From NCBI RefSeq assembly GCF_030384885.1, contig NZ_CP128613.1: DNA of 64,000 nt, one strand, 5' to 3'. The notes under the pieces were generated by a model. The model saw nothing but the letters and a program-made list of their open reading frames with translations, was not told the DNA's origin and ran no database searches. Source of the stretch: Escherichia coli. Lineage in GTDB: Bacteria > Pseudomonadota > Gammaproteobacteria > Enterobacterales > Enterobacteriaceae. A program made the translations under genes and the position numbers. The first letter of the stretch is position 1. Every line of letters starts with the position of its first letter. Of the stretch, positions 8,563-32,285 are shown in pieces.

Positions 8563-8603
8563 TTCACATAAGCCCGGTCAGTCCAATGTGACCGGGCTTT
8601 TAT

Positions 8604-9773: not shown

Positions 9774-10073
9774 ATGATGATGAACTCTTTCTTTCTGGCA
9801 ATGGCGCTTGTAGTGTTAGTGGGATGCTCGACACCGCCACCCGTGCAGAAAGCACAACGGGTAAAGGTTGATCCTCTGCGTTCGTTGAATATGGAAGCGT
9901 TATGCAAGGATCAGGCGGCAAAACGTTATAACACCGGCGAGCAAAAAATCGACGTCACCGCCTTCGAACAGTTCCAGGGAAGCTACGAAATGCGCGGTTA
10001 TACCTTCCGGAAAGAGCAGTTTGTCTGTTCTTTTGACGCGGATGGCCATTTTTTGCATCTTTCCATGCGTTAA
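9774..10073 (+). CDS. ysaB: Small lipoprotein YsaB
   Basis: 99 aa ORF with signal peptide and lipobox-like LVGCS; upstream of glyQ. Confidence 0.75.
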   Translation: MMMNSFFLAMALVVLVGCSTPPPVQKAQRVKVDPLRSLNMEALCKDQAAKRYNTGEQKIDVTAFEQFQGSYEMRGYTFRKEQFVCSFDADGHFLHLSMR

Positions 10074-10167
10074 GCCCTGCTTTTTCCCGTTTCGTACTGT
10101 ATATCTTCCATCCAGCGGGTATACTGATCCCTTCCTTTAAATCCACACGTATCCAGCACGAAATAAT

Positions 10168-11079: not shown

Positions 11080-11088
11080 GAGGCGGCT

Positions 11089-13158
11089 ATGTCTGAGAAA
11101 ACTTTTCTGGTGGAAATCGGCACTGAAGAGCTGCCACCAAAAGCACTGCGCAGCCTGGCTGAGTCCTTTGCTGCGAACTTTACTGCGGAGCTGGATAACG
11201 CTGGCCTCGCACACGGCACCGTTCAATGGTTTGCTGCTCCGCGTCGTCTGGCGCTGAAAGTAGCTAACCTGGCGGAAGCGCAACCGGATCGTGAAATCGA
11301 AAAACGTGGCCCGGCAATTGCTCAGGCGTTCGATGCTGAAGGTAAACCGAGTAAAGCGGCAGAAGGTTGGGCGCGTGGTTGCGGTATTACCGTTGACCAG
11401 GCTGAGCGTCTGACTACCGATAAAGGCGAATGGCTGCTGTATCGCGCCCACGTGAAGGGCGAAAGCACTGAAGCACTGCTGCCGAATATGGTCGCCACTT
11501 CGCTGGCGAAGCTGCCGATCCCGAAACTGATGCGTTGGGGCGCAAGCGACGTGCACTTCGTGCGTCCGGTTCACACCGTGACCCTGCTGCTGGGCGACAA
11601 AGTCATTCCGGCAACCATTCTGGGCATTCAGTCCGATCGCGTGATTCGCGGCCACCGCTTTATGGGCGAGCCGGAATTTACTATCGACAATGCCGATCAG
11701 TATCCGGAAATTCTGCGCGAGCGCGGGAAAGTTATCGCCGATTACGAAGAACGTAAGGCGAAGATTAAAGCCGATGCCGAAGAAGCCGCGCGTAAGATTG
11801 GCGGTAACGCTGACTTAAGCGAAAGCCTGTTGGAAGAAGTCGCTTCGCTGGTGGAATGGCCGGTTGTGCTGACCGCAAAATTCGAAGAGAAATTCCTCGC
11901 GGTGCCGTCTGAAGCGCTGGTTTACACCATGAAAGGTGACCAGAAATACTTCCCGGTGTATGCGAACGACGGCAAACTGCTGCCGAACTTTATCTTCGTT
12001 GCCAATATCGAATCGAAAGATCCGCAGCAAATTATCTCTGGTAACGAGAAAGTCGTTCGTCCACGTCTGGCGGATGCCGAGTTCTTCTTCAACACCGACC
12101 GTAAAAAACGTCTGGAAGATAATCTGCCGCGCCTGCAAACCGTGTTGTTCCAGCAACAGCTGGGTACACTACGCGACAAAACTGACCGCATCCAGGCGCT
12201 GGCTGGCTGGATTGCTGAACAGATTGGCGCTGACGTTAACCACGCAACCCGTGCGGGCCTGCTGTCTAAGTGTGACCTGATGACTAACATGGTCTTCGAG
12301 TTCACCGACACTCAGGGCGTTATGGGTATGCACTACGCGCGTCACGATGGTGAAGCGGAAGATGTCGCAGTGGCGCTGAACGAGCAGTATCAGCCGCGCT
12401 TTGCCGGTGATGACCTGCCGTCTAACCCGGTAGCCTGTGCGCTGGCGATAGCTGACAAGATGGATACTCTGGCGGGTATCTTCGGTATCGGCCAGCATCC
12501 GAAAGGCGACAAAGACCCGTTTGCGTTGCGTCGTGCCGCACTTGGCGTGCTGCGTATTATCGTTGAGAAGAACCTCAATCTTGACCTGCAAACCCTGACC
12601 GAAGAAGCAGTGCGTCTGTATGGCGATAAGCTGACTAATGCCAACGTGGTTGATGATGTTATCGACTTTATGCTCGGTCGCTTCCGCGCCTGGTATCAGG
12701 ACGAAGGTTACACCGTTGACACCATCCAGGCGGTACTGGCGCGTCGTCCGACTCGTCCGGCTGATTTCGATGCCCGAATGAAAGCGGTATCGCACTTCCG
12801 TACCCTGGATGCAGCTGCAGCACTGGCGGCGGCGAACAAGCGTGTATCTAACATTCTGGCGAAATCTGACGAAGTGCTGAGCGACCGCGTGAATGCCTCT
12901 ACTCTGAAAGAGCCGGAAGAAATTAAACTGGCGATGCAGGTTGTGGTGCTACGTGACAAGCTAGAGCCGTACTTTGCTGAAGGTCGTTACCAGGATGCGC
13001 TGGTCGAACTGGCTGAGCTGCGTGAACCGGTTGATGCCTTCTTCGATAAAGTGATGGTCATGGTTGATGACAAAGAATTGCGAATCAACCGTCTTACCAT
13101 GCTGGAGAAACTGCGCGAATTATTCCTGCGAGTTGCGGATATTTCGCTGTTGCAGTAA
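11089..13158 (+). CDS. glyS: Glycyl-tRNA synthetase beta subunit
   Basis: 689 aa ORF immediately downstream of glyQ. Confidence 0.97.
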
Positions 13159-13175
13159 TAACGTCGTTATTAAAA

Positions 13176-13201
13176 AGCCTGCCATCTGGCAGGCTTTTTT
13201 A
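13176..13201 (+). terminator. Rho-independent terminator of glyQS
   Basis: Hairpin agcctgcc-atct-ggcaggct followed by T6 run directly after glyS stop. Confidence 0.6.
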
Positions 13202-13479
13202 TCGCTAAATAATAGAGCAACCTTTAATAATCTTCTGATGAATAAAGATTGTCTCATATATTAATTTTATGAGATTTTTTTAGGATTATATCAAGGAGAA
13301 GAAAAGAACTTATTAAGCTAGAATAGCTGCGGGTGCTTGAGACTGTTTGTCTCAGGTATTCACCGAAAGGCAGACAGAGAAAAGCCCCACCTGACTATAA
13401 ATCAAAGTGAGGCTACCCTATGCCTGAACACCATAAGGTTAGCCTCTTACTCGTTAGAAATCAACACAGGAGGCTGGGA

Positions 13480-13632
13480 ATGCCGCAGAAATATAGATTA
13501 CTTTCTTTAATAGTGATTTGTTGCACGCTTTTATTTTTCACCTGGATGATAAGAGATTCACTGTGTGAATTGCATATTAAACAGGGGAGTTATGAGCTGG
13601 CGGCATTTTTAGCCTGCAATTTGAAAGAGTAA
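13480..13632 (+). CDS. hokA: Hok-family type I toxin (50 aa), locus intact
   Basis: MPQKYRLLSLIVICCTLLFFTWMIRDSLCELHIKQGSYELAAFLACNLKE; in-frame upstream extension present in ORF track (mok-like leader region). Confidence 0.85.
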   Translation: MPQKYRLLSLIVICCTLLFFTWMIRDSLCELHIKQGSYELAAFLACNLKE

Positions 13633-13762
13633 GAGTCTTCGGCGGGAAGTTATTCCCGCCTTTCTTACGGCGTTGCGCATTCTCATTGCACCCAAATTTA
13701 TTCTTCACAAAAATAATAATAGATTTTATTACGCGAACGATTATTTATTTCCTGAATAAACA

Positions 13763-13793
13763 AATAAAAAAATCCCCGCCATTTGGCAGGGAT
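13763..13793 (-). terminator. Rho-independent terminator downstream of cspA
   Basis: Hairpin ccctgcc-aaat-ggcgggg followed by U-run on minus-strand transcript. Confidence 0.6.
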
Positions 13794-13820
13794 CTTAGAT
13801 TCTGTGCTTTTAAGCAGAGA

Positions 13821-14033
13821 TTACAGGCTGGTTACGTTACCAGCTGCCGGGCCTTTAGCGCCGCTTTCGATGGTGAAGGACACTTTCTGACCTTCGTCCA
13901 GAGATTTGTAACCATCGTTCTGGATAGCAGAGAAGTGTACGAACACGTCTTTAGAGCCATCGTCAGGAGTGATGAAGCCGAAGCCTTTGTCAGCGTTGAA
14001 CCATTTTACGATACCAGTCATTTTACCGGACAT
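13821..14033 (-). CDS. cspA: Major cold shock protein CspA
   Basis: 70 aa [70 protein letters not shown]. Confidence 0.97.
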
Positions 14034-14192
14034 AGTGTATTACCTTTAATAATTAAGTGTGCCTTTCGGCGATATGGCGTGCTTTACAGATTTTGAAGCG
14101 TTAAAGGAATGTGCACTACGAGGGGTATCAACGATAACTCTTGAAGGGACTTGCCTTACTACACTGCTTTAATGGTCTGTACGTCAAACCGT
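14034..14192 (-). promoter_or_regulatory. cspA long 5' UTR (cold-responsive leader, by established knowledge)
   Basis: Region immediately upstream of cspA start on minus strand; extent taken from known ~159 nt leader, not resolved from sequence alone. Confidence 0.45.
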
Positions 14193-14313
14193 TGATGTGC
14201 ATTAAGCCACGCATTGGCGGGTGATGCAACAATTATTTTTCATATTTATGATTAATCGGTTGGAAAACGGTCCTGTCATCAGGACCGTAAACAGCAATAA
14301 AGTGGATAAAAGT

Positions 14314-14604
14314 CTATTCCATCAACTGCTTACTTAACGCTGGGTTAGCTTGAATCAGACGCATCAATTTTAGTTCGGCACTTGAAGGCTTAACGCGTCG
14401 GGATTCCCATTCCTTTACCATGGCGACGGAAACGCCCAAAACCCGAGCGAAATCATCGATTTTTAACCCCGTACCTTTACGTAACTGCTCAATCTCGGTA
14501 CAGGACGTTGTTCTATGCGTCAGAGTAATCTTCTGCGTTTCATCTTTAAAAACAATCTGTTCCAGGCTGCTCAACAGCTCATGCATGGGATCTTTATATT
14601 CCAT
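14314..14604 (-). CDS. yiaG: HTH (XRE-type) transcriptional regulator YiaG
   Basis: 96 aa ORF with helix-turn-helix segment LGVSVAMVKEWESRRVKP. Confidence 0.85.
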   Translation of the reverse strand: MEYKDPMHELLSSLEQIVFKDETQKITLTHRTTSCTEIEQLRKGTGLKIDDFARVLGVSVAMVKEWESRRVKPSSAELKLMRLIQANPALSKQLME

Positions 14605-15037
14605 TGAAAACTCCTCAAATCACACTGCGGGATCGTGAATTGCATCGAAGCTCATTAAGAATAGTCGGGAAAAGCAGACACAGCGGGAGTAAGGCAGGGC
14701 ATGCTCTGCCTGTGATTCGATTCAGCCTGACACTTAGCGTGACTTATAGCGACCTAACGATCTGATAAATGCCGATATATCTTTTACCACTCCGGGATTG
14801 TAAAGATTTCGAAAATATGGCGTTCTGTAAAGACGTAAATCTCTGGCTAGAAAAAAGGCAACTGCAATGTCATTTTTTATCAATGAAACAACAAATTAAC
14901 CTTGTTTCGTTTTCTCCATTATTTTACCAGGAAGATTACGTAGAAAGGGTATCCTGCAAGCCTGTCCTGGACTATCCTTGTCACGTCAGACACGCGTGTG
15001 TCGTTGTGCGCTTTTTTTGGGTGAAAGGAGTAAGAAA

Positions 15038-15748
15038 ATGGCGACAGGAAAGTCCTGCTCTCGCTGGTTTGCGCCTCTTGCGGCGTTATTAATGGTAGTT
15101 AGCCTGAGTGGGTGTTTTGATAAAGAAGGCGATCAGCGTAAAGCGTTTATCGACTTCCTGCAGAATACAGTGATGCGTAGCGGTGAACGTCTACCAACCC
15201 TGACTGCCGATCAGAAAAAACAGTTTGGTCCTTTTGTCTCTGATTACGCGATTCTGTATGGTTATTCACAGCAGGTGAATCAGGCGATGGATTCCGGTCT
15301 GCGCCCGGTTGTAGACAGCGTTAACGCAATTCGCGTACCGCAGGATTACGTTACGCAAAGCGGCCCACTGCGTGAAATGAACGGTTCTCTGGGTGTGCTG
15401 GCGCAACAGCTGCAAAATGCGAAGTTGCAGGCCGATGCTGCGCACTCTGCGCTAAAACAGAGCGATGACCTGAAACCGGTCTTTGATCAGGCATTCACCA
15501 AAGTGGTAACGACGCCAGCTGATGCTTTGCAACCGTTGATTCCGGCGGCACAAACTTTCACGCAACAACTGGTGATGGTTGGAGATTACATTGCTCAGCA
15601 AGGTACTCAGGTGAGTTTTGTCGCAAATGGCATCCAGTTCCCGACTTCGCAGCAGGCAAGTGAATATAACAAACTGATTGCGCCATTACCGGCACAGCAT
15701 CAGGCGTTTAATCAGGCCTGGACTACAGCAGTCACTGCAACCCAATAA
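15038..15748 (+). CDS. yiaF: Lipoprotein YiaF (DUF3053-type)
   Basis: ORF 14978..15748; start at ATG 15038 with AAGGAG RBS gives 236 aa; signal peptide and lipobox LSGC. Confidence 0.85.
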   Translation: MATGKSCSRWFAPLAALLMVVSLSGCFDKEGDQRKAFIDFLQNTVMRSGERLPTLTADQKKQFGPFVSDYAILYGYSQQVNQAMDSGLRPVVDSVNAIRVPQDYVTQSGPLREMNGSLGVLAQQLQNAKLQADAAHSALKQSDDLKPVFDQAFTKVVTTPADALQPLIPAAQTFTQQLVMVGDYIAQQGTQVSFVANGIQFPTSQQASEYNKLIAPLPAQHQAFNQAWTTAVTATQ

Positions 15749-15796
15749 AGAGTAAAAGCCCGAGCGATTATCGGGCTTTACTTCCCGCAGTCGCGG

Positions 15797-16771
15797 TTAT
15801 TCCGCGACGTGCGGATTCACACAGTTCTTCTCAACTTTTCCCTGTAACGCATTAATCAAATTATCCACGGCGCAGGCGGCCATGCCATAACGCGTCTCAT
15901 GAGTGGCTGAACCAATATGCGGTACCGCGACGACATTTGCCATTGAGAGCAACGGCGAATCTACAGACAGTGGCTCTTGTTCGAATACATCCAGCCCGGC
16001 AGCGTGAATTTCCCCTTTCTGCAATGCTGCAATCAGTGCATTTTCGTCAACCACTGGACCACGTCCGGCATTAATGAAAATGGCGGAGGATTTCATTTTG
16101 GCGAATTGTTCTGCGCCAAACAGATGATGCGTTTCATCAGTTAACGGCAGGATCAGGCAAACGAAATCTGACTCTTGTAACAGTGTATCCAAATCGCAGT
16201 AGCGGGCGTTGAAGCGTTCTTCTGCTTCTTTATGGTGGCGGCGCGCGTTATAGAGGATGGGCATATTGAAGCCAAAGTGCGCACGTTGTGCCAGCGCCAT
16301 GCCGATCCGTCCCATCCCGATAATGCCCAGTGTTTTATGGTGAACGTCAGTGCCGTACCAGTCCGGGCCTATGCTCGCGGTCCATTCGCCTGCTTTTACC
16401 CGTTCTGCTACCTCCACAACCCGACGAGCGGTAGACAACACCAGCGCCATCAGCGTATCGGCGACGGTTTCCGTTAATACGGTTGGCGTGTGCATCAGCA
16501 GGATTTTTCGAGCATTAAGGGCATCGACATCAAAATTGTCATAGCCTACGGAGATCGTTGATGTGGCCCGCAGTTTCGGCATTTTTTCCAGCAATGCGGC
16601 ATCAACATTCTCATTTGAACCCAGTAAACCTTCAGCTTCGGCAAAAATTGCTGCATTTTGTTCGATGGTTTGTGGGCTGAGGTTTGCCACCTGATGAACG
16701 GTGAAATGCTCTTGCAGGCGTTGCAGTAAATCATCAGGTAAGGCTTTGTAGAGGATAACGGACGGCTTCAT
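15797..16771 (-). CDS. ghrB: Glyoxylate/hydroxypyruvate reductase B (2-hydroxyacid dehydrogenase)
   Basis: ORF 15797..16783; start at MKPSVILYK gives 324 aa; NAD-binding GxGxxG motif GIIGMGRIG. Confidence 0.9.
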
Positions 16772-16874
16772 TCTTCTCTCCATTCACTGATAAGGCGATC
16801 ACCTTAGCCTGAAATATGATGAAGGAAAACTGAAGAATGCCAGGTGATTTTTGCATCACCTGGCATGAAAGGGA

Positions 16875-17534
16875 TTACAGCGGGCTTAAGGTAATTTCTA
16901 CACGGCGGTTTTGCGCCTTACCTTCTGCGGTGCTGTTGCTGGCGATTGGGTTAGCCGGGCCAAGGCCCTGAGTACGGATGCGGCTGGCGTCCACGCCCTG
17001 GGTGATCAACGCGCTGGCAACGGAATCCGCACGCTGCTGGGAGAGACGCATGTTCAGGTCGTGACCACCCGTGCTGTCGGTATAACCAATCACGTTAACC
17101 GCCGTTTTCGGATACTCTTTCAGCACCATTGCCACGCCGGTTAGGGTGTTAGCGCCTGCCGGTTTCAGGGTCGCGCTGCTGCTGTCGAAGGTTACATTGT
17201 TCGGCATATTGAGGATAATGTTATCCCCGCTGCGGGTTACGCTAACACCAGTGCCGCGCATTTTGTCACGTAGCTTCGCTTCCTGCACATCCATGTAATA
17301 ACCAACGCCGCCGCCCAGAGCTGCACCCGCTGCTGCGCCAATCAGCGCGCCTTTACCGCGATCTTTCTTCGAAGAAGAGAGCGCACCAATACCCGCGCCA
17401 ACGAGAGAGCCCAGACCTGCACCGATAGCAGATTTACCTGCTTCGCGTTCACCTGTGTAAGGGTTAGTGGTGCAGCCAGATACCGCCAGAGCGCCACTCA
17501 CTACGGCGGCAATAAGATAAACACGTTTCTTCAT
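16875..17534 (-). CDS. yiaD: OmpA-domain outer membrane lipoprotein YiaD
   Basis: 219 aa; lipobox VSGC; C-terminal OmpA-like peptidoglycan-binding region. Confidence 0.9.
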   Translation of the reverse strand: MKKRVYLIAAVVSGALAVSGCTTNPYTGEREAGKSAIGAGLGSLVGAGIGALSSSKKDRGKGALIGAAAGAALGGGVGYYMDVQEAKLRDKMRGTGVSVTRSGDNIILNMPNNVTFDSSSATLKPAGANTLTGVAMVLKEYPKTAVNVIGYTDSTGGHDLNMRLSQQRADSVASALITQGVDASRIRTQGLGPANPIASNSTAEGKAQNRRVEITLSPL

Positions 17535-17686
17535 TGTTAATCCTTAATAACCTTTTTATTCTTTGCCACGGGTTCCGTGGCGGGAGATTATGCCGCGTGA
17601 ACATGAAGATTATTCCTGGGAATACTCGGAAATTTGTAAGTAATATTTAACTGCTCAATACATCTAACCTTTCAGGAGCCTTCGGT

Positions 17687-20020
17687 TTGGCCAACTCATC
17701 CTCACGATATTCCGTTCTGACTGCCGCTCACTGGGGGCCCATGCTGGTTGAAACCGACGGCGAAACCGTGCTTAGCTCGCGTGGCGCGTTAGCCACAGGA
17801 ATGGAAAACTCCTTGCAGAGCGCGGTTCGCGACCAGGTTCACAGTAATACGCGGGTACGATTTCCAATGGTGCGCAAAGGCTTTCTTGCGTCACCGGAAA
17901 ACCCGCAAGGCATTCGTGGGCAGGATGAATTTGTTCGTGTGAGTTGGGATGAGGCGCTGGAGCTTATTCACCAACAACATAAACGTATTCGTGAGGCTTA
18001 TGGTCCGGCATCGATTTTTGCTGGTTCCTACGGCTGGCGTTCAAACGGCGTGCTGCATAAGGCCTCGACATTATTACAACGCTATATGGCGCTGGCAGGC
18101 GGTTATACCGGGCATCTGGGGGATTATTCGACCGGTGCAGCACAGGCGATCATGCCGTATGTCGTGGGGGGCAGCGAAGTTTATCAACAGCAAACCAGTT
18201 GGCCGTTGGTATTGGAACATAGCGATGTCGTGGTGCTATGGAGTGCTAACCCACTCAATACGCTGAAAATTGCGTGGAATGCATCCGATGAGCAGGGGCT
18301 TTCTTACTTTTCCGCACTGCGTGACAGCGGGAAAAAGCTGATCTGCATTGATCCAATGCGATCGGAAACCGTCGATTTCTTTGGCGATAAAATGGAGTGG
18401 GTGGCACCGCACATGGGCACCGATGTTGCGCTGATGCTGGGGATCGCCCATACGCTGGTGGAAAATGGCTGGCACGACGAAGCGTTTCTGGCGCGTTGCA
18501 CCACAGGTTATGACGTCTTCGCCTCTTATTTGCTGGGCGAGAGTGACGGAATAGCGAAAAATGCCGAATGGGCGGCAGAGATTTGTGGGATTAACGCAGA
18601 GAAAATCCGCGAACTGGCGGCTATTTTTCATCAAAATACCACCATGCTGATGGCTGGCTGGGGAATGCAGCGCCAGCAGTTTGGTGAGCAAAAACACTGG
18701 ATGATCGTCACCCTGGCAGCAATGTTAGGGCAAATCGGCACGCCTGGCGGGGGCTTTGGTCTTTCTTACCATTTTGCCAATGGTGGTAACCCTACGCGCC
18801 GCGCTGCGGTGCTTTCATCTATGCAGGGCAGCTTGCCAGGTGGCACCGATGCGGTAGATAAAATCCCTGTAGCCCGTATGGTTGAAGCTCTGGAAAACCC
18901 TGGCGGTGCATACCAACACAATGGCATGAACCGTCACTTCCCGGATATTCGTTTTATCTGGTGGGCGGGCGGCGCCAACTTTACTCATCATCAGGATACC
19001 AATCGCCTGATTCGTGCCTGGCAAAAACCGGAGCTGGTGGTGATCTCCGAATGCTTCTGGACGGCAGCGGCGAAACACGCCGATATCGTCCTCCCTGCAA
19101 CCACCTCGTTTGAGCGTAATGACCTCACCATGACCGGCGATTACAGTAATCAGCATCTGGTGCCGATGAAGCAAGTGGTGCCTCCACGTGATGAAGCGCG
19201 TAATGATTTTGCTGTCTTTGCCGAGTTGAGTGAACGTTGGGAGAAGGGCGGCTATGCGCGGTTTACGGAAGGAAAAAGTGAGCTGCAATGGCTGGAAACG
19301 TTTTATAACGTTGCACGGCAGCGCGGGGCAAGCCAGCAGGTTGAATTGCCGCCATTTGCTGAGTTCTGGGAAGCCAACCAGTTAATTGAGATGCCGGAAA
19401 ACCCGGACAGCGAGCGGTTTATTCGCTTCGCCGATTTTCGCCGCGATCCGCAGGCGCATCCATTAAAAACCGCCAGCGGCAAGATTGAAATCTTCTCGCA
19501 GCGTATTGCCGATTACGCTTATCCGGATTGCCCTGGGCATCCAATGTGGCTGGAGCCGGACGAATGGCAGGGCAATGCCGAACCGGAACAGTTGCAGGTA
19601 CTTTCTGCTCATCCGGCACATCGTCTGCACAGCCAGCTGAATTACAGTTCTCTGCGCGAATTGTACGCGGTGGCAAATCGTGAGCCTGTCACCATTCATC
19701 CTGACGATGCCCAGGCGCGCGGCATACAAGATGGCGATATTGTTCGGTTGTGGAACGCACGCGGGCAAATTCTTGCCGGAGCGGTCATTAGCGAGGGAAT
19801 TAAACCTGGCGTGATTTGCATTCATGAAGGGGCATGGCCGGATCTGGATTTAACCGCTGACGGTATTTGTAAAAACGGCGCGGTGAACGTTCTGACCAAA
19901 GATCTCCCCAGCTCGCGGCTGGGGAATGGCTGTGCGGGTAATACGGCGCTGGCATGGCTGGAAAAATACAACGGTCCGGAACTGACACTTACAGCGTTTG
20001 AACCACCGGCCAGCTCATAA
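17687..20020 (+). CDS. bisC: Biotin sulfoxide reductase (molybdopterin oxidoreductase)
   Basis: 777 aa ORF beginning at TTG with AGGAG RBS; [19 protein letters not shown]... Confidence 0.9.
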
Positions 20021-20429
20021 TCCAGGTGGGTAGTTGGGTTTCATCCTGCCATGCGCAGTCGACAATGTGAAAACCCTGCGCATGGTAAAAATCTATCGCC
20101 GGTTGATTTTTTTGATAAACCTCCAGCATCAGATGGGGATGGCGCTGCTGCACATACTGCATTAGCGCCTTACCAATACCGCGTCTGACGGCCTTCGGTG
20201 CGACAAACATTGCAGCCAGAAATCGGCCTTCCATAATGCTGACAAAACCGAGAAGCTTACCGTCTTCTTCCCAGACCCAGTTTTGCGCGTTGGCAAGATA
20301 GGCATCCCGCACCAGCGGAATGCAATCACGCCAGTAATTCGCTTTTATAAAGGGATGCCCCCAGGTTGTACTTTCCAGCCACAATTCGAGGATCGCGGGG
20401 AGTTCTGAACGTTGCGCTTCCCGAATCAT
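19989..20429 (-). CDS. yiaC: GNAT family N-acetyltransferase YiaC
   Basis: 146 aa ORF; 3' end overlaps bisC 3' end convergently by 32 nt; start overlaps tag stop (ATGA). Confidence 0.85.
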
Positions 20430-20989
20430 GGTTTATTTCCCGGATAGCAACAGCAGCCAACCACATGATCATTCACCAGCCCACATGCCTGCATAAAGGA
20501 GTAACAGATTGTGGTACCAACAAACTTAAAACCACGCTTTTTCAGGGCTTTAGATAGAGCGTCGGAGGCGGGCGTAGATGTAGGGATTTCGCTCAACGTT
20601 GTGGCTTGTGTCACCTGTGGTTGATGATTGACAAACGACCAAACAAAGTCGGCAAACGGTTCGCCGTTCTGTTCCATTTGCAGGTACGCTCGCGCATTGC
20701 CAATAATTGCCTGAATTTTCCCGCGATGGCGGATAATCCCGGCGTCCTGTACCAGTCTTTCGACGTCCTCTTCCTGCATTGCAGCCACCTTCACCGGATC
20801 GAACTGATGAAAGCTGGCGCGATAGTTTTCGCGTTTTTTGAGGACGGTGATCCACGATAATCCAGCCTGCTGCCCTTCAAGGCAGATCATTTCGAACAGT
20901 TTTTTACTGTCAGTTTCAGGCACGCCCCATTCATTATCATGGTAGGCAATATAAAGCGGGTCCTGACTCACCCAGCCGCAACGTTCCAT
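20426..20989 (-). CDS. tag: 3-methyladenine DNA glycosylase I
   Basis: ORF 20426..21226; start at internal ATG (MERCGWVSQDPLYIAYHDNEWG...) gives 187 aa. Confidence 0.9.
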   Translation of the reverse strand: MERCGWVSQDPLYIAYHDNEWGVPETDSKKLFEMICLEGQQAGLSWITVLKKRENYRASFHQFDPVKVAAMQEEDVERLVQDAGIIRHRGKIQAIIGNARAYLQMEQNGEPFADFVWSFVNHQPQVTQATTLSEIPTSTPASDALSKALKKRGFKFVGTTICYSFMQACGLVNDHVVGCCCYPGNKP

Positions 20990-21146
20990 ACTTTCCCTCG
21001 CTATGTACCCGATCGTAAAAATTTCAGCCGCTTTTCTTGACGCATCGGTGAAAAAGTCAATATTTAATACAGGGCTACTATGCCCGATATCCTTCATACA
21101 ATGACAATAATATTGCCGAATTCGGCTCTTCCCTGGAGTCGTGTTA

Positions 21147-21845
21147 ATGATCATAAAAAAAAGCGGTGGTCGCTGACAGTTAAGCCTGCTGGCGAGCGTG
21201 GTAATCAGTGCCTTTTTTCTCAACACAGCTTACGCCTGGCAACAAGAATATATCGTTGATACGCAACCCGGACATTCCACAGAGCGCTACACCTGGGATA
21301 GCGATCATCAACCTGATTACAACGATATTCTGTCGCAACGTATTCAAAGTAGCCAAAGGGCGCTGGGACTGGAAGTCAATCTGGCGGAAGAAACCCCTGT
21401 GGATGTGACCAGCAGTATGAGTATGGGCTGGAATTTTCCTTTATATGAACAGGTTACAACCGGCCCGGTCGCGGCATTACATTACGATGGTACAACCACC
21501 TCGATGTATAACGAGTTTGGCGACAGTACTACTACACTGACTGATCCGTTATGGCATGCCAGTGTGAGTACCTTAGGCTGGCGTGTTGACTCCCGGCTTG
21601 GCGATCTCCGACCCTGGGCGCAAATCAGCTATAACCAGCAATTTGGCGAGAATATCTGGAAGGCGCAATCAGGCTTAAGCCGGATGACGGCGACAAACCA
21701 GAACGGCAACTGGCTGGATGTCACGGTAGGTGCTGATATGTTGCTCAATCAAAATATTGCCGCCTACGCTGCGTTATCTCAGGCAGAAAATACCACGAAC
21801 AATAATGACTATCTGTATACGATGGGGGTTAGTGCCAGATTTTAA
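21147..21845 (+). pseudogene. yhjY: yhjY (autotransporter-like beta-barrel protein) interrupted by in-frame TGA at codon 10 (21174..21176); downstream GTG-initiated ORF 21198..21845 remains
   Basis: ATG 21147 to stop 21845 is 232 codons, matching the recalled YhjY length, but reads MIIKKSGGR-TGA-QLSLLASVVISAFF; ORF track restarts at GTG 21198 without the n-region of the signal peptide. Confidence 0.5.
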
Positions 21846-22073
21846 CGTTATAGAAACAATTGAAACCCATAAATAACAACTAATGTGGCGATAGTGGGGA
21901 CTAACTTACTAAATAATAAATTTGGTGAATAATTGTCGAGTCATTCATTCCTGAACTAATGCATTTCATTCCGTTCTGATGGCATTTCATGCCGTTTTTC
22001 CCCAGGCATAAAGTGCACTTCGTTATGGTTGTCAGCAGAGATTTTTCCTTTTTATTACTGCAGGAATACTGCC

Positions 22074-23282
22074 ATGACACCTTCAAATTATCAGCGTACT
22101 CGCTGGCTGACACTCATCGGTACTATCATTACCCAGTTTGCCCTGGGGTCGGTTTATACCTGGAGTCTGTTTAACGGCGCGCTTTCTGCCAAGCTGGGGG
22201 CTCCGGTAAGCCAGGTTGCTTTCTCTTTCGGCTTGTTAAGTCTGGGGCTGGCAATTTCGTCTTCTGTTGCGGGCAAATTGCAAGAACGTTTTGGTGTTAA
22301 ACGCGTCACTATGGCTTCCGGCATTTTGCTGGGATTAGGTTTCTTCCTGACAGCACATTCCAACAACCTGATGATGCTGTGGTTAAGCGCCGGTGTGTTG
22401 GTTGGTCTGGCGGATGGTGCGGGTTACCTGTTGACGCTCTCTAACTGCGTGAAGTGGTTCCCGGAGCGTAAGGGACTCATCTCTGCTTTCGCTATTGGTT
22501 CTTATGGACTTGGTAGTCTGGGTTTCAAATTTATCGATACGCAACTGTTGGAAACGGTCGGTCTGGAAAAAACCTTTGTTATTTGGGGCGCGATTGTACT
22601 GGTGATGATTATCTTTGGCGCAACGTTAATGAAAGATGCGCCGAAACAGGAAGTGAAAACCAGCAATGGTGTGGTGGAGAAGGATTACACGCTGGCAGAG
22701 TCGATGCGTAAACCGCAGTACTGGATGTTAGCAGTTATGTTCCTGACTGCCTGCATGAGTGGCCTGTATGTGATTGGCGTGGCGAAAGATATCGCTCAAA
22801 GTCTGGCGCATCTTGATGCAATTTCCGCAGCCAATGCTGTGACGGTTATTTCCATCGCCAACCTTTCTGGTCGTCTGGTGCTGGGCATTCTGTCTGACAA
22901 AATCGCCCGTATCCGTGTTATCACCATTGGTCAGGTCATTTCGCTGGTGGGCATGGCGGCCCTGCTGTTTGCACCATTGAATGCAGTGACGTTCTTTGCA
23001 GCGATTGCCTGCGTGGCATTTAACTTCGGCGGCACTATCACGGTGTTCCCGTCACTGGTCAGTGAGTTCTTCGGCCTAAATAATCTGGCAAAAAACTACG
23101 GTGTGATTTACCTCGGTTTCGGAATCGGCAGCATTTGTGGTTCGATTATCGCTTCACTGTTTGGCGGATTCTATGTGACATTCTACGTGATTTTCGCCCT
23201 GCTGATTCTGTCACTGGCGCTTTCTACGACGATTCGCCAGCCAGAGCAGAAAATGTTGCGTGAGGCGCATGGCTCCCTTTAA
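22074..23282 (+). CDS. yhjX: MFS transporter YhjX (oxalate/formate antiporter family)
   Basis: ORF 22029..23282; start at MTPSNYQRTRWLTLIG gives 402 aa; polytopic membrane protein. Confidence 0.9.
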   Translation: MTPSNYQRTRWLTLIGTIITQFALGSVYTWSLFNGALSAKLGAPVSQVAFSFGLLSLGLAISSSVAGKLQERFGVKRVTMASGILLGLGFFLTAHSNNLMMLWLSAGVLVGLADGAGYLLTLSNCVKWFPERKGLISAFAIGSYGLGSLGFKFIDTQLLETVGLEKTFVIWGAIVLVMIIFGATLMKDAPKQEVKTSNGVVEKDYTLAESMRKPQYWMLAVMFLTACMSGLYVIGVAKDIAQSLAHLDAISAANAVTVISIANLSGRLVLGILSDKIARIRVITIGQVISLVGMAALLFAPLNAVTFFAAIACVAFNFGGTITVFPSLVSEFFGLNNLAKNYGVIYLGFGIGSICGSIIASLFGGFYVTFYVIFALLILSLALSTTIRQPEQKMLREAHGSL

Positions 23283-23605
23283 TGACCTGCCGCGAGCTAC
23301 TGGGCTTTAGCCTTAGTGTGAATCAAACGCTTCAACGCAATGTATAAACAATGACGCGTAAAATTTGGGCCAGTGAACTGGCCCTTTTTACTGCTTTTTG
23401 TAACGCTAAAGTCTCTTTTCAAACTTGCATTTTTGTAAATTTGTGCTTCATGCACACTCTTTCCCCACACTTTTTCCCTTTGCTGTGGTCTACTTATTCG
23501 CGCGTGTAGATTTTACTTATCTGACTACCTCCGCACTTTTCCCCTGCCGGGCCTGAAAAGCCACTAAGCAGGGTGTTATCACCTGTTTGTCCAGGGTTTG
23601 TTTGC

Positions 23606-25297
23606 ATGAGATACATCAAATCGATTACACAGCAGAAGCTGAGCTTTTTGCTTGCAATCTATATTGGCCTTTTTATGAATGGCGCGGTTTTTTACCGCCG
23701 CTTCGGCAGCTATGCGCACGATTTTACCGTCTGGAAAGGCGTTTCTGCTGTTGTTGAACTGGTCGCTACCGTACTGGTGACCTTCTTTTTACTGCGTCTG
23801 CTTTCGCTGTTTGGCCGCCGCAGCTGGCGAATTCTGGCATCGCTGGTGGTGCTCTTTTCTGCAGGTGCCAGCTATTACATGACTTTCCTTAATGTGGTCA
23901 TTGGTTATGGCATCATCGCATCCGTCATGACCACCGATATCGACCTGTCAAAAGAAGTTGTTGGTCTGAACTTTATTCTCTGGTTAATCGCCGTAAGCGC
24001 ATTGCCTCTTATCCTTATCTGGAATAACCGCTGTCGCTACACCTTGCTCCGACAACTGCGAACCCCAGGGCAACGTATTCGGAGTCTGGCGGTCGTCGTA
24101 CTGGCAGGTATTATGGTTTGGGCACCGATTCGTTTGCTGGATATCCAGCAGAAGAAAGTGGAGAGGGCGACAGGTGTTGATTTGCCGAGTTATGGTGGCG
24201 TTGTCGCGAACTCTTATCTGCCATCAAACTGGCTTTCGGCGTTAGGTCTTTATGCCTGGGCGCGGGTCGATGAATCTTCCGATAACAATTCTCTCCTTAA
24301 CCCTGCGAAGAAGTTTACGTACCAGGCTCCACAAAACGTTGATGATACATATGTCGTTTTCATTATTGGTGAAACCACGCGCTGGGATCATATGGGCATT
24401 TTCGGCTATGAACGCAATACCACACCGAAACTGGCTCAGGAGAAAAATCTGGCGGCGTTTCGTGGCTATTCTTGTGACACGGCGACCAAACTTTCTCTGC
24501 GTTGCATGTTTGTGCGTCAGGGTGGAGCAGAAGATAATCCGCAGCGCACATTAAAAGAACAGAACATTTTCGCGGTATTGAAGCAGTTAGGATTCAGTTC
24601 TGATCTCTACGCTATGCAAAGCGAAATGTGGTTCTACAGCAATACGATGGCGGACAATATTGCTTATCGTGAGCAGATTGGTGCGGAACCGCGTAACCGC
24701 GGCAAGCCGGTAGATGATATGTTGCTGGTAGACGAAATGCAGCAATCGCTGGGGCGTAACCCGGATGGTAAGCATCTGATCATTCTGCATACCAAGGGGT
24801 CGCACTTTAACTACACCCAGCGTTACCCGCGCAGCTTTGCGCAGTGGAAGCCAGAATGTATTGGTGTTGATAGCGGCTGTACCAAAGCGCAGATGATCAA
24901 CTCCTACGACAACTCGGTGACCTATGTGGATCACTTTATTTCCAGCGTGATTGATCAGGTTCGCGATAAGAAAGCGATTGTGTTCTACGCAGCTGACCAC
25001 GGTGAGTCAATTAATGAACGCGAGCACCTGCACGGCACACCGCGTGAACTGGCACCGCCGGAGCAGTTCCGCGTACCGATGATGGTCTGGATGTCGGATA
25101 AATATCTGGAAAATCCAGCCAACGCGCAGGCATTTGCGCAGCTGAAAAAAGAAGCCGACATGAAAGTGCCACGCCGTCACGTAGAGCTGTACGACACCAT
25201 CATGGGTTGTCTTGGCTATACTTCACCGGACGGTGGTATTAACGAAAACAACAACTGGTGCCACATCCCGCAGGCAAAAGAGGCAGCGGCTAACTAA
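23606..25297 (+). CDS. eptB: Phosphoethanolamine transferase EptB (Kdo-specific)
   Basis: ORF 23573..25297; start at [16 protein letters not shown] gives 563 aa; N-terminal membrane domain plus sulfatase-like domain. Confidence 0.9.
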
Positions 25298-25388
25298 GAA
25301 GCCTGCTGACTTTCTCGCCGATCAAAAGGCATTTTGCTATTAAGGGATTGACGAGGGCGTATCTGCGCAGTAAGATGCGCCCCGCATT

Positions 25389-25465
<77 letters not shown>

Positions 25466-25474
25466 AATTCGAAA

Positions 25475-25501
25475 AGCCTGCTCAGCGAGCAGGCTTTTTT
25501 G
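25475..25501 (+). terminator. Rho-independent terminator after proK
   Basis: Hairpin agcctgctc-agcg-agcaggct followed by T6. Confidence 0.6.
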
Positions 25502-25790
25502 CATTTGAAGCCCATGAGGATGAGAACCTCCGGGGGCGGGGAGGTTCGACTCGAGCGAAGCGAGAGAACGTTGCGCCAGCAACGGCCCGCAGGGCGAGCC
25601 ACGAAGTGGCGAGTAATCCTCTATCACCGACCAATTTAGAAAAACCAGCCTACGGGCTGGTTTTTTGCTTTCTGCGACCTGAAGAGGATAAGAACCTCCG
25701 GGGGCAGGGAGGTTCGACTCGAGCAAAGCGAGAGAACGTTGTGGCAGCAACGGCCCGCAGTGGCGAGTAATCCTCTGGCACCGACCAAAA
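25502..25790 (+). repeat. Two tandem ~155-170 bp repeats, each ending in a copy of the proK 3' terminal 19 nt and containing a degenerate T-arm-like segment
   Basis: aatcctctatcaccgacca at 25615..25633 is identical to the tRNA 3' end (25447..25465); aatcctctggcaccgacca at 25769..25787 has 2 mismatches; gggaggttcgactcgagc occurs in both units. Confidence 0.6.
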
Positions 25791-26380
25791 CGGCCCCGCA
25801 TTCATTGTCGGATACAGCGTACCTGTCTTATCCGATCTAAACGGCAACACACCACATATTTCCCTGCCAAATTTGCGCCCCACATCTCACTATCCATTAA
25901 CGGATTTGTGACAGAATCCATTGTCTTTTTTTATATTTGCTTAAATCTTTTTTTGCGTTACTTATGGCTGGCGCTGGCATTTTCCGCTGTGCGTTTTAGC
26001 GTTCATGGTATTAATCGCTCAGATATCCATCTTTTCCTCAGATTTTTTTCATTAAATGCATAAAACTTAATCACCAAATGTTGCTAAATATTAAGCTGAT
26101 TGTTCTGGTTATGTTGGCGTAGCACAAATTTCTCTGCTGCAAATAGCTGTTTGAAGTTTTTTTAATCTTTGTTTGTGGATTCTCACCGTTGGTGTAAATC
26201 CCGGTTGGCTGTATTGACGTTTTCACATTCTGTTGACAGATTGTAGGTCACGAGGGGCATTTTATGGAGGATCCGCACTGTTACACTGATGTTAATTAGT
26301 ACGGCATCCCCACCTCATAACGTTGACCCGACCGGGTAAAAAACAAAAAAGGTCAGGCAGCGACAACCCACTGCAAAGGG

Positions 26381-26402
26381 TTAAAACAACAAACATCACA
26401 AT
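26381..26402 (+). promoter_or_regulatory. C/A-rich element in dppA leader just upstream of RBS (candidate GcvB sRNA target, by established knowledge of dppA regulation)
   Basis: ttaaaacaacaaacatcacaat immediately upstream of GGAG RBS and dppA ATG at 26415. Confidence 0.4.
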
Positions 26403-26414
26403 TGGAGCAGAATA

Positions 26415-28022
26415 ATGCGTATTTCCTTGAAAAAGTCAGGGATGCTGAAGCTTGGTCTCAGCCTGGTGGCTATGACCGTCGCAGCAAGTGTTCAGGCTAA
26501 AACTCTGGTTTATTGCTCAGAAGGATCTCCGGAAGGGTTTAACCCGCAGCTGTTTACCTCCGGCACCACCTATGACGCCTCTTCCGTACCGCTTTATAAC
26601 CGCCTGGTTGAATTTAAAATCGGCACCACTGAAGTGATTCCGGGCCTCGCTGAAAAGTGGGAAGTCAGCGAAGACGGTAAAACCTATACCTTCCATCTGC
26701 GTAAAGGTGTGAAGTGGCATAACAACAAAGAATTCAAACCGACGCGCGAACTGAATGCCGATGACGTGGTGTTCTCGTTCGATCGTCAGAAAAACGCACA
26801 AAACCCGTACCATAAAGTTTCTGGCGGCAGCTACGAATACTTCGAAGGTATGGGCTTGCCGGAGCTGATCAGCGAAGTGAAAAAGGTGGACGACAACACC
26901 GTTCAGTTCGTGCTGACTCGCCCGGAAGCGCCGTTCCTTGCTGACCTGGCAATGGACTTCGCCTCTATTCTGTCAAAAGAATATGCTGACGCGATGATGA
27001 AAGCCGGTACGCCGGAAAAACTGGACCTCAACCCAATCGGCACCGGCCCGTTCCAGTTACAGCAATATCAAAAAGATTCCCGTATTCGCTACAAAGCGTT
27101 TGATGGCTACTGGGGCACCAAACCGCAGATCGATACGCTGGTCTTCTCTATTACTCCTGACGCTTCCGTGCGTTACGCTAAATTGCAGAAGAACGAATGC
27201 CAGGTGATGCCGTACCCGAACCCGGCAGACATCGCTCGCATGAAGCAGGATAAATCCATCAACCTGATGGAAATGCCGGGGCTGAACGTCGGCTATCTCT
27301 CGTATAACGTGCAGAAAAAACCACTGGATGACGTGAAAGTTCGCCAGGCACTGACCTATGCGGTGAACAAAGACGCGATTATCAAAGCGGTGTATCAGGG
27401 CGCTGGCGTATCAGCGAAAAACCTGATCCCGCCAACCATGTGGGGCTATAACGATGATGTTCAGGACTACACCTACGATCCTGAAAAAGCGAAAGCCTTG
27501 CTGAAAGAAGCGGGTCTGGAAAAAGGCTTCTCTATCGACCTGTGGGCAATGCCGGTACAACGTCCGTATAACCCGAACGCTCGTCGCATGGCAGAGATGA
27601 TTCAGGCAGACTGGGCGAAAGTCGGCGTACAAGCGAAAATCGTTACCTACGAATGGGGTGAGTACCTCAAGCGTGCAAAAGATGGCGAGCACCAGACGGT
27701 AATGATGGGCTGGACTGGCGATAACGGGGATCCGGATAACTTCTTCGCTACCCTGTTTAGCTGCGCTGCCTCTGAACAAGGCTCCAACTACTCAAAATGG
27801 TGCTACAAACCGTTTGAAGATCTGATTCAACCGGCGCGTGCTACCGACGACCACAACAAGCGTGTTGAACTGTACAAACAAGCACAGGTCGTGATGCACG
27901 ATCAGGCTCCGGCACTGATCATCGCTCACTCCACCGTGTTTGAACCGGTACGCAAAGAAGTTAAAGGCTATGTGGTTGATCCATTAGGCAAACATCACTT
28001 CGAAAACGTCTCTATCGAATAA
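26415..28022 (+). CDS. dppA: Dipeptide ABC transporter periplasmic binding protein
   Basis: 535 aa with signal peptide; followed by dppBCDF. Confidence 0.97.
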   Translation: MRISLKKSGMLKLGLSLVAMTVAASVQAKTLVYCSEGSPEGFNPQLFTSGTTYDASSVPLYNRLVEFKIGTTEVIPGLAEKWEVSEDGKTYTFHLRKGVKWHNNKEFKPTRELNADDVVFSFDRQKNAQNPYHKVSGGSYEYFEGMGLPELISEVKKVDDNTVQFVLTRPEAPFLADLAMDFASILSKEYADAMMKAGTPEKLDLNPIGTGPFQLQQYQKDSRIRYKAFDGYWGTKPQIDTLVFSITPDASVRYAKLQKNECQVMPYPNPADIARMKQDKSINLMEMPGLNVGYLSYNVQKKPLDDVKVRQALTYAVNKDAIIKAVYQGAGVSAKNLIPPTMWGYNDDVQDYTYDPEKAKALLKEAGLEKGFSIDLWAMPVQRPYNPNARRMAEMIQADWAKVGVQAKIVTYEWGEYLKRAKDGEHQTVMMGWTGDNGDPDNFFATLFSCAASEQGSNYSKWCYKPFEDLIQPARATDDHNKRVELYKQAQVVMHDQAPALIIAHSTVFEPVRKEVKGYVVDPLGKHHFENVSIE

Positions 28023-28057
28023 TTAAAAGCCATACAAGGTTGATGGCAAACGCAAAA

Positions 28058-28238
<181 letters not shown>

Positions 28239-28329
28239 TTAATTCCTTGTCCTATAAGGGCGGGAATTGATTTGTGAGCAATACAGACTCGCAGTTCCAG
28301 GCTGCGGGTCACTACAGAGAATCCGGGTT

Positions 28330-29349
28330 ATGTTGCAGTTTATTCTCCGACGTTTGGGACTCGTCATCCCCACGTTTATCGGTATTACCCTTCTCACATT
28401 TGCCTTTGTCCACATGATCCCGGGCGATCCGGTGATGATCATGGCGGGTGAACGTGGGATCTCCCCAGAGCGTCACGCACAATTGCTGGCAGAACTCGGC
28501 TTGGATAAACCGATGTGGCAGCAGTATCTCCATTACATTTGGGGTGTAATGCACGGTGATTTAGGCATTTCGATGAAAAGCCGCATCCCGGTTTGGGAAG
28601 AGTTCGTGCCGCGCTTCCAGGCCACGCTGGAACTTGGCGTCTGCGCGATGATTTTTGCGACCGCGGTCGGTATTCCGGTTGGTGTGCTGGCTGCGGTTAA
28701 ACGCGGTTCTATTTTCGATCACACGGCGGTTGGTCTGGCGCTGACCGGCTACTCCATGCCGATCTTCTGGTGGGGCATGATGTTGATCATGCTGGTTTCG
28801 GTGCACTGGAACCTGACGCCTGTCTCCGGTCGCGTGAGCGACATGGTGTTCCTCGATGACTCCAATCCGTTAACCGGTTTTATGCTAATCGACACCGCCA
28901 TCTGGGGTGAAGACGGTAACTTTATCGATGCCGTCGCCCATATGATCCTGCCCGCCATTGTGCTGGGTACTATCCCGCTGGCGGTCATTGTACGTATGAC
29001 GCGCTCCTCGATGCTGGAAGTGCTGGGCGAGGATTACATCCGCACCGCGCGTGCCAAAGGGCTGACCCGCCTTAGGGTGATTATCGTCCATGCGCTGCGT
29101 AATGCCATGCTGCCGGTGGTGACCGTTATCGGCCTGCAGGTGGGAACATTGCTGGCAGGCGCGATTCTGACCGAAACCATCTTCTCGTGGCCAGGTCTGG
29201 GGCGCTGGTTGATTGACGCGCTGCAACGCCGCGATTATCCGGTAGTGCAGGGAGGCGTATTACTGGTGGCGACGATGATTATCCTCGTCAACCTGCTGGT
29301 CGATCTGCTGTACGGCGTGGTGAACCCGCGTATTCGTCATAAGAAGTAA
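28330..29349 (+). CDS. dppB: Dipeptide ABC transporter permease
   Basis: ORF 28267..29349; start at MLQFILRRLGLVIPTF gives 339 aa. Confidence 0.95.
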   Translation: MLQFILRRLGLVIPTFIGITLLTFAFVHMIPGDPVMIMAGERGISPERHAQLLAELGLDKPMWQQYLHYIWGVMHGDLGISMKSRIPVWEEFVPRFQATLELGVCAMIFATAVGIPVGVLAAVKRGSIFDHTAVGLALTGYSMPIFWWGMMLIMLVSVHWNLTPVSGRVSDMVFLDDSNPLTGFMLIDTAIWGEDGNFIDAVAHMILPAIVLGTIPLAVIVRMTRSSMLEVLGEDYIRTARAKGLTRLRVIIVHALRNAMLPVVTVIGLQVGTLLAGAILTETIFSWPGLGRWLIDALQRRDYPVVQGGVLLVATMIILVNLLVDLLYGVVNPRIRHKK

Positions 29350-29358
29350 GGGGACATC

Positions 29359-30261
29359 ATGTCACAGGTTACTGAAAATAAAGTGATTAGCGCACCGGTG
29401 CCGATGACCCCGTTACAGGAGTTCTGGCACTATTTTAAACGCAACAAAGGCGCGGTTGTCGGGCTGGTTTACGTCGTCATCGTGCTGTTTATCGCGATCT
29501 TTGCCAACTGGATTGCACCCTATAACCCAGCGGAACAGTTCCGCGATGCACTGCTCGCCCCGCCAGCCTGGCAAGAAGGCGGCAGTATGGCGCACTTGCT
29601 GGGCACCGATGACGTAGGTCGTGATGTGCTGTCGCGGCTGATGTACGGCGCGCGCTTGTCGCTGCTGGTTGGCTGTCTGGTAGTGGTGTTATCGCTGATT
29701 ATGGGCGTTATTCTCGGCCTGATCGCTGGTTACTTTGGCGGCCTGGTCGATAACATCATCATGCGCGTGGTCGATATCATGCTGGCGCTGCCAAGTCTGC
29801 TGCTGGCGCTGGTGCTGGTGGCGATTTTCGGCCCGTCGATTGGTAACGCCGCGCTGGCGCTAACCTTCGTTGCGCTGCCGCACTATGTGCGCTTAACCCG
29901 CGCCGCCGTGCTGGTGGAGGTGAATCGCGATTACGTCACCGCGTCTCGCGTGGCGGGGGCCGGGGCGATGCGTCAGATGTTTATTAACATCTTCCCGAAC
30001 TGCCTTGCGCCGCTGATTGTTCAGGCGTCGCTCGGTTTCTCTAACGCCATTCTCGATATGGCTGCTCTTGGTTTCCTCGGCATGGGAGCGCAGCCGCCAA
30101 CACCGGAGTGGGGCACCATGCTCTCCGATGTGTTGCAGTTCGCGCAAAGCGCCTGGTGGGTCGTAACCTTCCCCGGTCTGGCGATCCTGCTGACGGTGCT
30201 GGCATTTAACCTGATGGGTGACGGTCTGCGTGACGCGCTCGATCCCAAACTGAAGCAGTAA
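29359..30261 (+). CDS. dppC: Dipeptide ABC transporter permease
   Basis: 300 aa membrane ORF. Confidence 0.95.
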
Positions 30262-30271
30262 GAGGTTCGAG

Positions 30272-31255
30272 ATGGCGTTATTAAATGTAGATAAATTATC
30301 GGTGCATTTCGGCGACGAAAGCGCACCGTTCCGCGCCGTAGACCGTATCAGCTACAGCGTAAAACAGGGCGAAGTGGTCGGAATTGTGGGTGAGTCTGGC
30401 TCCGGTAAGTCGGTCAGTTCACTGGCGATTATGGGGCTGATTGATTATCCGGGCCGCGTGATGGCAGAAAAGCTGGAGTTTAACGGCCAGGATTTGCAGC
30501 GTATCTCGGAAAAAGAGCGCCGCAACCTGGTGGGTGCCGAAGTGGCGATGATCTTTCAGGACCCGATGACCAGCCTCAACCCGTGTTACACCGTAGGTTT
30601 CCAGATTATGGAAGCAATTAAAGTGCATCAGGGCGGTAATAAGAGCACTCGCCGTCAGCGGGCGATTGATCTGCTGAATCAGGTCGGTATTCCCGATCCG
30701 GCATCGCGTCTGGATGTTTACCCGCATCAGCTTTCTGGCGGCATGAGCCAGCGTGTGATGATCGCCATGGCGATTGCCTGTCGGCCAAAACTGCTGATTG
30801 CTGATGAGCCGACCACCGCGCTGGACGTGACCATTCAGGCACAAATCATCGAACTGCTGCTGGAGCTGCAGCAGAAAGAGAACATGGCGCTGGTGTTGAT
30901 TACCCATGACCTGGCGCTGGTGGCGGAAGCGGCGCATAAAATCATCGTCATGTATGCAGGCCAGGTGGTGGAAACGGGCGATGCCCACGCCATCTTCCAT
31001 GCACCGCGTCATCCGTATACTCAGGCATTGCTGCGCGCGCTGCCGGAATTTGCCCAGGACAAAGAACGTCTGGCGTCATTGCCTGGCGTCGTTCCTGGCA
31101 AATACGACCGACCGAATGGCTGCCTGCTTAACCCGCGTTGCCCCTATGCCACTGACAGATGCCGTGCTGAAGAACCGGCGCTGAATATGCTCGCTGACGG
31201 GCGTCAGTCCAAATGCCATTACCCACTTGATGATGCCGGGAGGCCCACACTATGA
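30272..31255 (+). CDS. dppD: Dipeptide ABC transporter ATP-binding protein
   Basis: 327 aa; Walker A GESGSGKS. Confidence 0.95.
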
Positions 31256-32256: not shown

Positions 32257-32285
32257 CTCACAAAACCGGGGCCATGCGCTCCGGT

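Follow-up and report, generated by a model that had tools for sequence, protein, structure and literature searches.

The window, i.e. the whole 64,000-nt stretch of Escherichia coli DNA that was analysed, carries yhjY within the gene order bisC-yiaC-tag / yhjY / yhjX-eptB, which is the same in the window and in the reference genomes. A 901-nt region matched 5,422 of the 5,426 complete RefSeq E. coli genomes, and among the matches listed the locus is labelled yhjY, 'autotransporter outer membrane beta-barrel domain-containing protein'. An earlier note on this DNA had assigned the open reading frame to yhjY, and its placement between tag and yhjX in these 5,422 genomes bears out the assignment. 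The window gene has the same coordinates as the corresponding CDS of E. coli 2013C-4282, to which it is 99.6% identical at the nucleotide level, and also lies between tag and yhjX. In all three records examined in detail, the CDS begins at the equivalent ATG and comprises 699 nt and 232 aa. The normal length of 232 codons given in the earlier note is accordingly that of both WP_000584470.1 and WP_001299523.1. The features discussed below are compiled in the table.

Features at the yhjY locus (positions are those of the window)
Feature	Position	Strand	Description
Shine-Dalgarno (SD) GGAG	21135..21138	+	8 nt upstream of the yhjY ATG; anti-SD duplex -5.9 kcal/mol
yhjY frame	21147..21845	+	232 codons plus TAA, broken at codon 10; RefSeq CDS at identical position, 699 nt
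Signal-peptide coding region	21147..21236	+	30 codons; n-region MIIKKSGGR, h-region (W)QLSLLASVVISAFFL, c-region NTAYA
A8 homopolymer	21155..21162	+	codons 3-5; intact in the window; recurrent indel site in other strains
RybB complement	21159..21170	+	12 nt contiguous including G-U pairs, to RybB nt 1-12; yhjY codons 5-8
Premature stop TGA (W10*)	21174..21176	+	G>A at 21176; tetranucleotide context TGA-C (C = 21177)
Residual ORF	21198..21845	+	longest ORF left; GTG start, 215 aa, reported by gene callers; without SD; signal sequence truncated and uncharged
T6 tract	21213-21218		within the signal-peptide coding region

Translation of the frame from the ATG at 21147-21149 gives MIIKKSGGR, followed by the TGA at 21174-21176 as codon 10. 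Beyond this stop, the frame remains open for another 222 codons up to the TAA at 21843-21845, which amounts to 232 sense codons if the TGA is counted as a codon. All coordinates of the earlier note were reproduced in this way, including the GTG-initiated ORF at 21198. In an alignment with yhjY of other E. coli, codon 10 is TGG in all three intact alleles examined, which stem from the strains 2020CK-00188 and 2013C-4282 (both WP_000584470.1) and from one K-12 strain (WP_001299523.1). The window differs from them at this codon by a single G>A transition at 21176, and the change from Trp (TGG) to TGA that had been proposed before is therefore what the alignment returned. If residue 10 were W, the window product would agree with WP_000584470.1 throughout.

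YhjY is predicted to be a small outer-membrane beta-barrel domain protein of the autotransporter type. When the conceptual protein with W at residue 10 was used as query, residues 88-209 matched the Pfam profile PF03797 at profile positions 119-253 of 255 (46.5 bits, curated cutoff 26), and residues 88-232 matched TIGR01414 at profile positions 285-432 of 432 (21.7 bits, curated cutoff 16). The intact allele further encodes a basic n-region, a 14-residue hydrophobic run, an A-x-A site and the C-terminal sequence ...GVSARF, the aromatic end of which agrees with an outer-membrane protein beta-signal; in the window allele, the stop interrupts the signal peptide. The Pfam profile search returned no additional domain match, and thus neither a passenger nor a lipase domain. 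Photorhabdus Lip1, a GDSL-lipase autotransporter, has been named as a remote relative of YhjY (PMC6637259), and the old label 'putative lipase' would reflect similarity to the barrel of Lip1 only. A profile search of PDB sequences yielded no sequence relative, and AlphaFold2 predictions of intact YhjY from 15- and 77-sequence alignments reached mean pLDDT values of 33.6 and 36.6, which is too low for use. Previously, YhjY has been included in a list of the E. coli OMP-ome, with a homology model described as a 'deformed or broken barrel' (PMC7383365). The gene has also been placed among the RpoS-controlled genes of O157:H7 EDL933 (PMC2907692), and it is tabulated, with a value of 3.88, among genes that change during a growth transition of O157:H7 Sakai (PMC2241611).

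The N-terminal layout of the protein is conserved. All 15 aligned orthologues, representing at least seven genera, share the same Met, a basic n-region (M-x-I-K-K-x-x-G-R), a hydrophobic core and the A-x-A site. The residues WQQEY following A-x-A are nearly invariant, and the C-terminal Phe is likewise common to all, while residue 10 varies between W, R, Q and H. According to the A-x-A rule, cleavage is predicted between AYA and WQQEY. The orthologues, from E. albertii, E. fergusonii, Salmonella, Citrobacter, Superficieibacter, Kosakonia, Enterobacter and Pseudenterobacter, are uninterrupted and 229-235 aa in length; in the window, the frame that starts at the conserved Met is broken by the TGA at codon 10. 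The predicted anti-SD duplex at the native start (-5.9 kcal/mol) equals the median of the 25 annotated plus-strand starts in the window, compared to a median of -2.5 kcal/mol at random positions. The earlier note had considered that the reference gene might start at the GTG and encode a shorter product. This is not the case, as the three intact alleles all start at the ATG, a start which is also upheld by the conservation of the Met and the signal-peptide layout from Escherichia to Kosakonia.

Compared to K-12, the window yhjY has 20 synonymous and 3 nonsynonymous differences, corresponding to a dN/dS of 0.038, and the gene is therefore normally under strong purifying selection. From the two nearest intact alleles it is separated by 1-2 synonymous and no nonsynonymous differences; this marks the stop as a recent event, after which the gene has not decayed further. 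The surrounding DNA is also in good order. Over 64 kb, the window is colinear with the chromosome of 2013C-4282, with 227 substitutions and no indels, and 53 of the 54 annotated window CDSs are intact, yhjY being the only one with an internal stop. The window is therefore not a region in Shigella-like decay, nor is the assembly of low quality. The 54 annotated CDSs contain 364 TGG codons, and one nonsense codon by itself is no statistical anomaly.

The divergence from 2013C-4282 is patchy. The flanks (1-20000 and 49000-64000) have 0-1 differences per 2 kb, and up to 35 differences per 2 kb, nearly all synonymous, occur in tag-dppF and bcsG-bcsC (about 20400-33600 and about 34700-48900), a distribution that looks typical of homologous-recombination patches. 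For the yhjY region, the closest strain is 2020CK-00188 and not 2013C-4282. Elsewhere in the window (54361-59705), a block of seven CDSs annotated as hypothetical or DUF3142 in 2013C-4282 is situated between yhjJ and kdgK; five of these are encoded on the plus strand and two, including that for a 664-aa protein, on the minus strand, and the window retains the block with 100% or near-100% conservation.

Based on these findings, the window very probably carries a genuine, recent and lineage-specific nonsense mutation (TGG>TGA, W10*) in an otherwise intact chromosomal yhjY, which would make it a young pseudogene or a strong hypomorph. The gene has a premature stop where its close relatives have a sense codon, and no compensating recoding signal, as is characteristic of a nonsense pseudogene. 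Ribosomes that start from the native SD and ATG would stop after nine residues, inside the signal peptide, and the lineage would consequently make little or no YhjY. Two minor routes may bypass the lesion. In the first, near-cognate Trp-tRNATrp would read the weak UGA-C and give the exact wild-type precursor, presumably at the percent level or below. In the second, inefficient restart at the GTG at 21198 or at a CTG at 21186 would give a product devoid of the basic n-region and of about half of the hydrophobic core, which should not be exported by the Sec pathway and should therefore be absent from the outer membrane. The likeliest status of W10* is a null or strongly reduced allele that is at most leaky.

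With respect to the first route, bacterial termination has been documented to be inefficient where C follows the UGA (PMC5289835), and UGA read-through, the outcome of competition between Trp-tRNATrp and RF2, amounted to about 2% at 37 °C and about 4% at 25 °C in a K-12 reporter (PMC10570021). Because the ancestral codon encodes Trp, read-through would regenerate the exact wild-type precursor. K-12 carries an unusually weak RF2 variant, and read-through in the present, non-K-12 lineage would probably be lower than the figures from the K-12 reporter. The earlier note had left room for read-through of the TGA. Of this, a low-level leak that restores Trp is retained, as it is expected from the UGA-C context, and programmed recoding is rejected on the evidence given below.

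The 5' end of yhjY also contains the putative pairing site of the small RNA RybB. yhjY has been named as a new RybB target in a TRIC-seq preprint, and the contiguous 12-nt seed complement found here supports this call. A seed match of 12 pairs was reached by 2 of 2,000 shuffles, and two such sites occur in 128 kb. The predicted RybB-yhjY duplex has an energy of -21.0 kcal/mol, which is unexceptional against the background, and it is the contiguous match to the 5' seed alone that stands out. The mutated base lies 6 nt beyond the end of the pairing (21170-21171), and the TGA and TGG alleles give duplexes of equal energy, so that an influence of the mutation on RybB pairing was ruled out. The other 12-nt RybB seed match in the window, at 60057-60068 on the minus strand, falls midway within the kdgK CDS and probably arose by chance. 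An effect on a promoter-like hexamer on the minus strand (CTGTCA, 21179-21174) was rejected as well, since neither allele agrees with the consensus at the mutated position; near the lesion, promoter-like sites are no more frequent than expected (2 found, 2.7 expected).

Lesions in the 5' part of yhjY are not restricted to the window allele. Among 5,422 complete E. coli genomes, the A8 tract is extended to A9 in 28 and shortened to A7 in 46. Three of the five displayed places with the 215-aa ORF have an altered A-tract and no TGA (A9 in SRR21389232, A6 in ERR14116781 and ERR14116790). An A7 tract fuses an upstream out-of-frame ORF (ATG 21080 or 21101) in frame to yhjY, resulting in 247-254 aa with the KK..R residues kept. 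Truncated or partial copies of yhjY are represented among database proteins, including those of Shigella flexneri. In addition, the database proteins P0012, P0007 and P0130 ('...ERGNQCLFLNTAYAWQQ') pass from the upstream -1 frame into that of yhjY near 21213-21218, which probably implies frame-restoring indels in or near the T6 tract of other strains. RefSeq calls such 5'-disrupted copies CDSs of 219 aa (from a CTG) or 247 aa (from an upstream ATG) and not pseudogenes, as observed in the PGAP-annotated records NZ_CP043211.1 and NZ_CP033605.1. Because PGAP labels them as ordinary CDSs, the disrupted alleles are invisible in searches by product name. From the sequences compared, yhjY appears as a gene that is conserved overall and sporadically struck at its 5' end, W10* being one more case.

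These recurrent lesions raise the question of whether W10* is a tuned allele, that is, whether the 5' end serves as a recurrent target of inactivation or phase-like variation and the leaky UGA-C as a selected dimming of an RpoS-dependent outer-membrane protein. The many independent A7, A9, A6 and T-tract changes and the truncated S. flexneri copies would fit adaptive down-regulation, as would the return of the exact wild-type protein by read-through. A synonymous change in yhjY moreover recurred in five laboratory populations. Against this, the low dN/dS marks the gene as normally conserved and the TGA allele comes from one lineage only. Some of the A7 and A9 calls may be homopolymer errors of long-read sequencing, and of the 28 genomes with A9, at least 8 belong to one clone derived from K-12 CV601. 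We therefore consider adaptive tuning very unlikely. The corresponding picture of the 5' end as a recurrent and possibly selected off/dim switch, composed of the A8 and T6 tracts, the leaky UGA-C at a substitution-tolerant residue and the adjoining or overlapping RybB site, would turn W10* into a 'dimmer' that provides a few percent of wild-type YhjY instead of a dead gene; we regard this picture as an unlikely one.

A further alternative to a nonsense allele with little or no product is that a functional, N-terminally shortened YhjY is produced from the GTG at 21198 or the CTG at 21186. An uninterrupted ORF of 215 codons is indeed left, and RefSeq calls comparable 5'-disrupted copies shortened CDSs, for example one of 219 aa from an in-frame CTG in PG20180050. 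Termination 22 nt upstream of the GTG could also permit some re-initiation. However, the predicted SD duplex at the GTG reaches -2.7 kcal/mol, as at random positions, compared to the -5.9 kcal/mol of the native start. The restart product, beginning with MVISAFFLNTAYA, is without positive charge: the net charge of the first ten residues is 0 (GTG) versus +3 (ATG), and the hydrophobic run is reduced from 14 to 8 residues. This confirms the earlier statement that the GTG-initiated ORF lacks the charged n-region, and all 15 of the aligned orthologues have kept the basic n-region and h-region complete. Because the yhjY family consists of exported outer-membrane barrels, and a barrel that is not exported cannot function, the GTG product is expected to be non-functional. 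A working shortened YhjY is thus a very improbable reading, and the earlier suggestion of a pseudogene or an N-terminally altered product gains support from the conserved ATG start and from a restart without SD and n-region.

Another possibility is that the stop results from an error in sequencing or assembly, the true base at 21176 being G and the gene intact. A single-base difference is the commonest type of error. A search with an 80-nt query on the site found no exact match to the TGA allele in complete RefSeq E. coli genomes among the matches listed, the best of which differ from the query by exactly one base; these cover 3,000 of the 5,426 genomes, and absence overall assumes that exact matches rank first. 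An exact-pattern scan of the GTDB species-representative genomes did not find the allele either. In contrast, Logan contigs of two SRA runs, SRR28813876 (6,648 nt) and SRR34938331 (2,398 nt), contain this TGA as well and match the window at 100% identity, flanks included, and eight further similar places were grouped with the SRR28813876 contig. Among the matches listed, two of the five displayed places with the 215-aa ORF carry the TGA, and public protein collections (NCBI and Logan) contain an exact copy of the 215-aa protein initiated at the GTG (P0001). Site 21176 is located outside any homopolymer. The lack of indels over 64 kb relative to the nearest relative and the 80% of transitions among the 227 substitutions are as in real divergence. 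Recovery of the same allele from independent runs on one lineage makes a chance miscall very unlikely. These runs could be re-sequencing of one strain, in which case they would still disfavour a random error and barely inform on the spread of the allele. The earlier note had kept a sequencing error in play; the single lesion it described proved to be real, and an intact gene with a miscalled base is now extremely unlikely.

Finally, the TGA could be a functional sense codon. As for recoding ALTERNATIVES, 10 of the 54 window CDSs end in TGA as their normal stop, and tRNA-Pro is the only tRNA gene in the window, so that no suppressor tRNA is present within the 64 kb; reassignment of UGA and a local suppressor were ruled out on these grounds. 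No SECIS-like hairpin was detected in the 67 nt from the UGA, which fold less stably than their shuffled counterparts (MFE -13.6 versus a shuffle mean of -17.4, z = +1.26), no Rfam family matched the UGA region, and Cys is absent at residue 10 from the relatives examined, which have W, R, Q or H instead. The gene therefore has neither a SECIS hairpin 3' of the UGA nor relatives with Cys or Sec, as would be expected of a selenoprotein gene, and selenocysteine or structured recoding was discarded. Rescue by a -1 frameshift on A_AAA_AAA was rejected because the -1 frame, while bypassing the TGA, ends at a TGA at 21257-21259 (ORF 21080..21259) and never rejoins the yhjY frame. Programmed UGA recoding, by selenocysteine or a dedicated read-through signal, has next to no chance of being correct: the UGA is in frame, in a leaky UGA-C context and followed by an undecayed ORF, but it has no hairpin or Rfam element behind it, it is TGG in every close relative examined and R, Q or H but not Cys in more distant orthologues, it would place a catalytic Sec in a cleaved signal peptide where it makes no sense, and TGA terminates ten other genes of the window.

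The nonsense mutation W10* is hence an ordinary knock-out of a known gene and no new biological feature. As a private nonsense allele of the gene for a non-essential outer-membrane protein, it carries little weight for biology, but it is a clean marker of its lineage, and the 42-mer AAAAAAGCGGTGGTCGCTGACAGTTAAGCCTGCTGGCGAGCG could serve as a sequence tag for carriers of the yhjY TGA allele. It would also provide a natural near-knock-out of an outer-membrane protein that depends on RpoS and is targeted by RybB, for comparison with closely related TGG strains such as 2013C-4282. In addition, the case calls for caution in annotation: gene callers derive 'autotransporter beta-barrel domain' proteins of 215-219 aa without a working signal peptide from such alleles, and these then enter the databases.

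When compared with known systems, the predicted barrel of YhjY belongs with the barrel domains of type Va autotransporters (PF03797 / TIGR01414), as residues 88-232 match the C-terminal half of both profiles. Unlike classical autotransporters, YhjY has no passenger; of the about 202 residues of the predicted mature protein, only about 57 lie ahead of the matched region. The yhjY of K-12 (b3548, UniProt P37663, WP_001299523.1) has the same locus, start and length, and the window product differs from the K-12 protein by three residues; at codon 10, the WP_000584470.1 and K-12 alleles have TGG and the window has TGA. With ordinary strain-specific nonsense pseudogenes, the window gene shares the premature stop. 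The autoregulatory stop of prfB, a leaky UGA-C (cited in PMC5289835), resembles that of yhjY in that UGA is followed by C and Trp-tRNATrp competes with termination. In contrast to prfB and similar cases, the yhjY UGA has no frameshift site, hairpin or other stimulatory element, and any read-through in yhjY would be a basal leak and not a programmed event.
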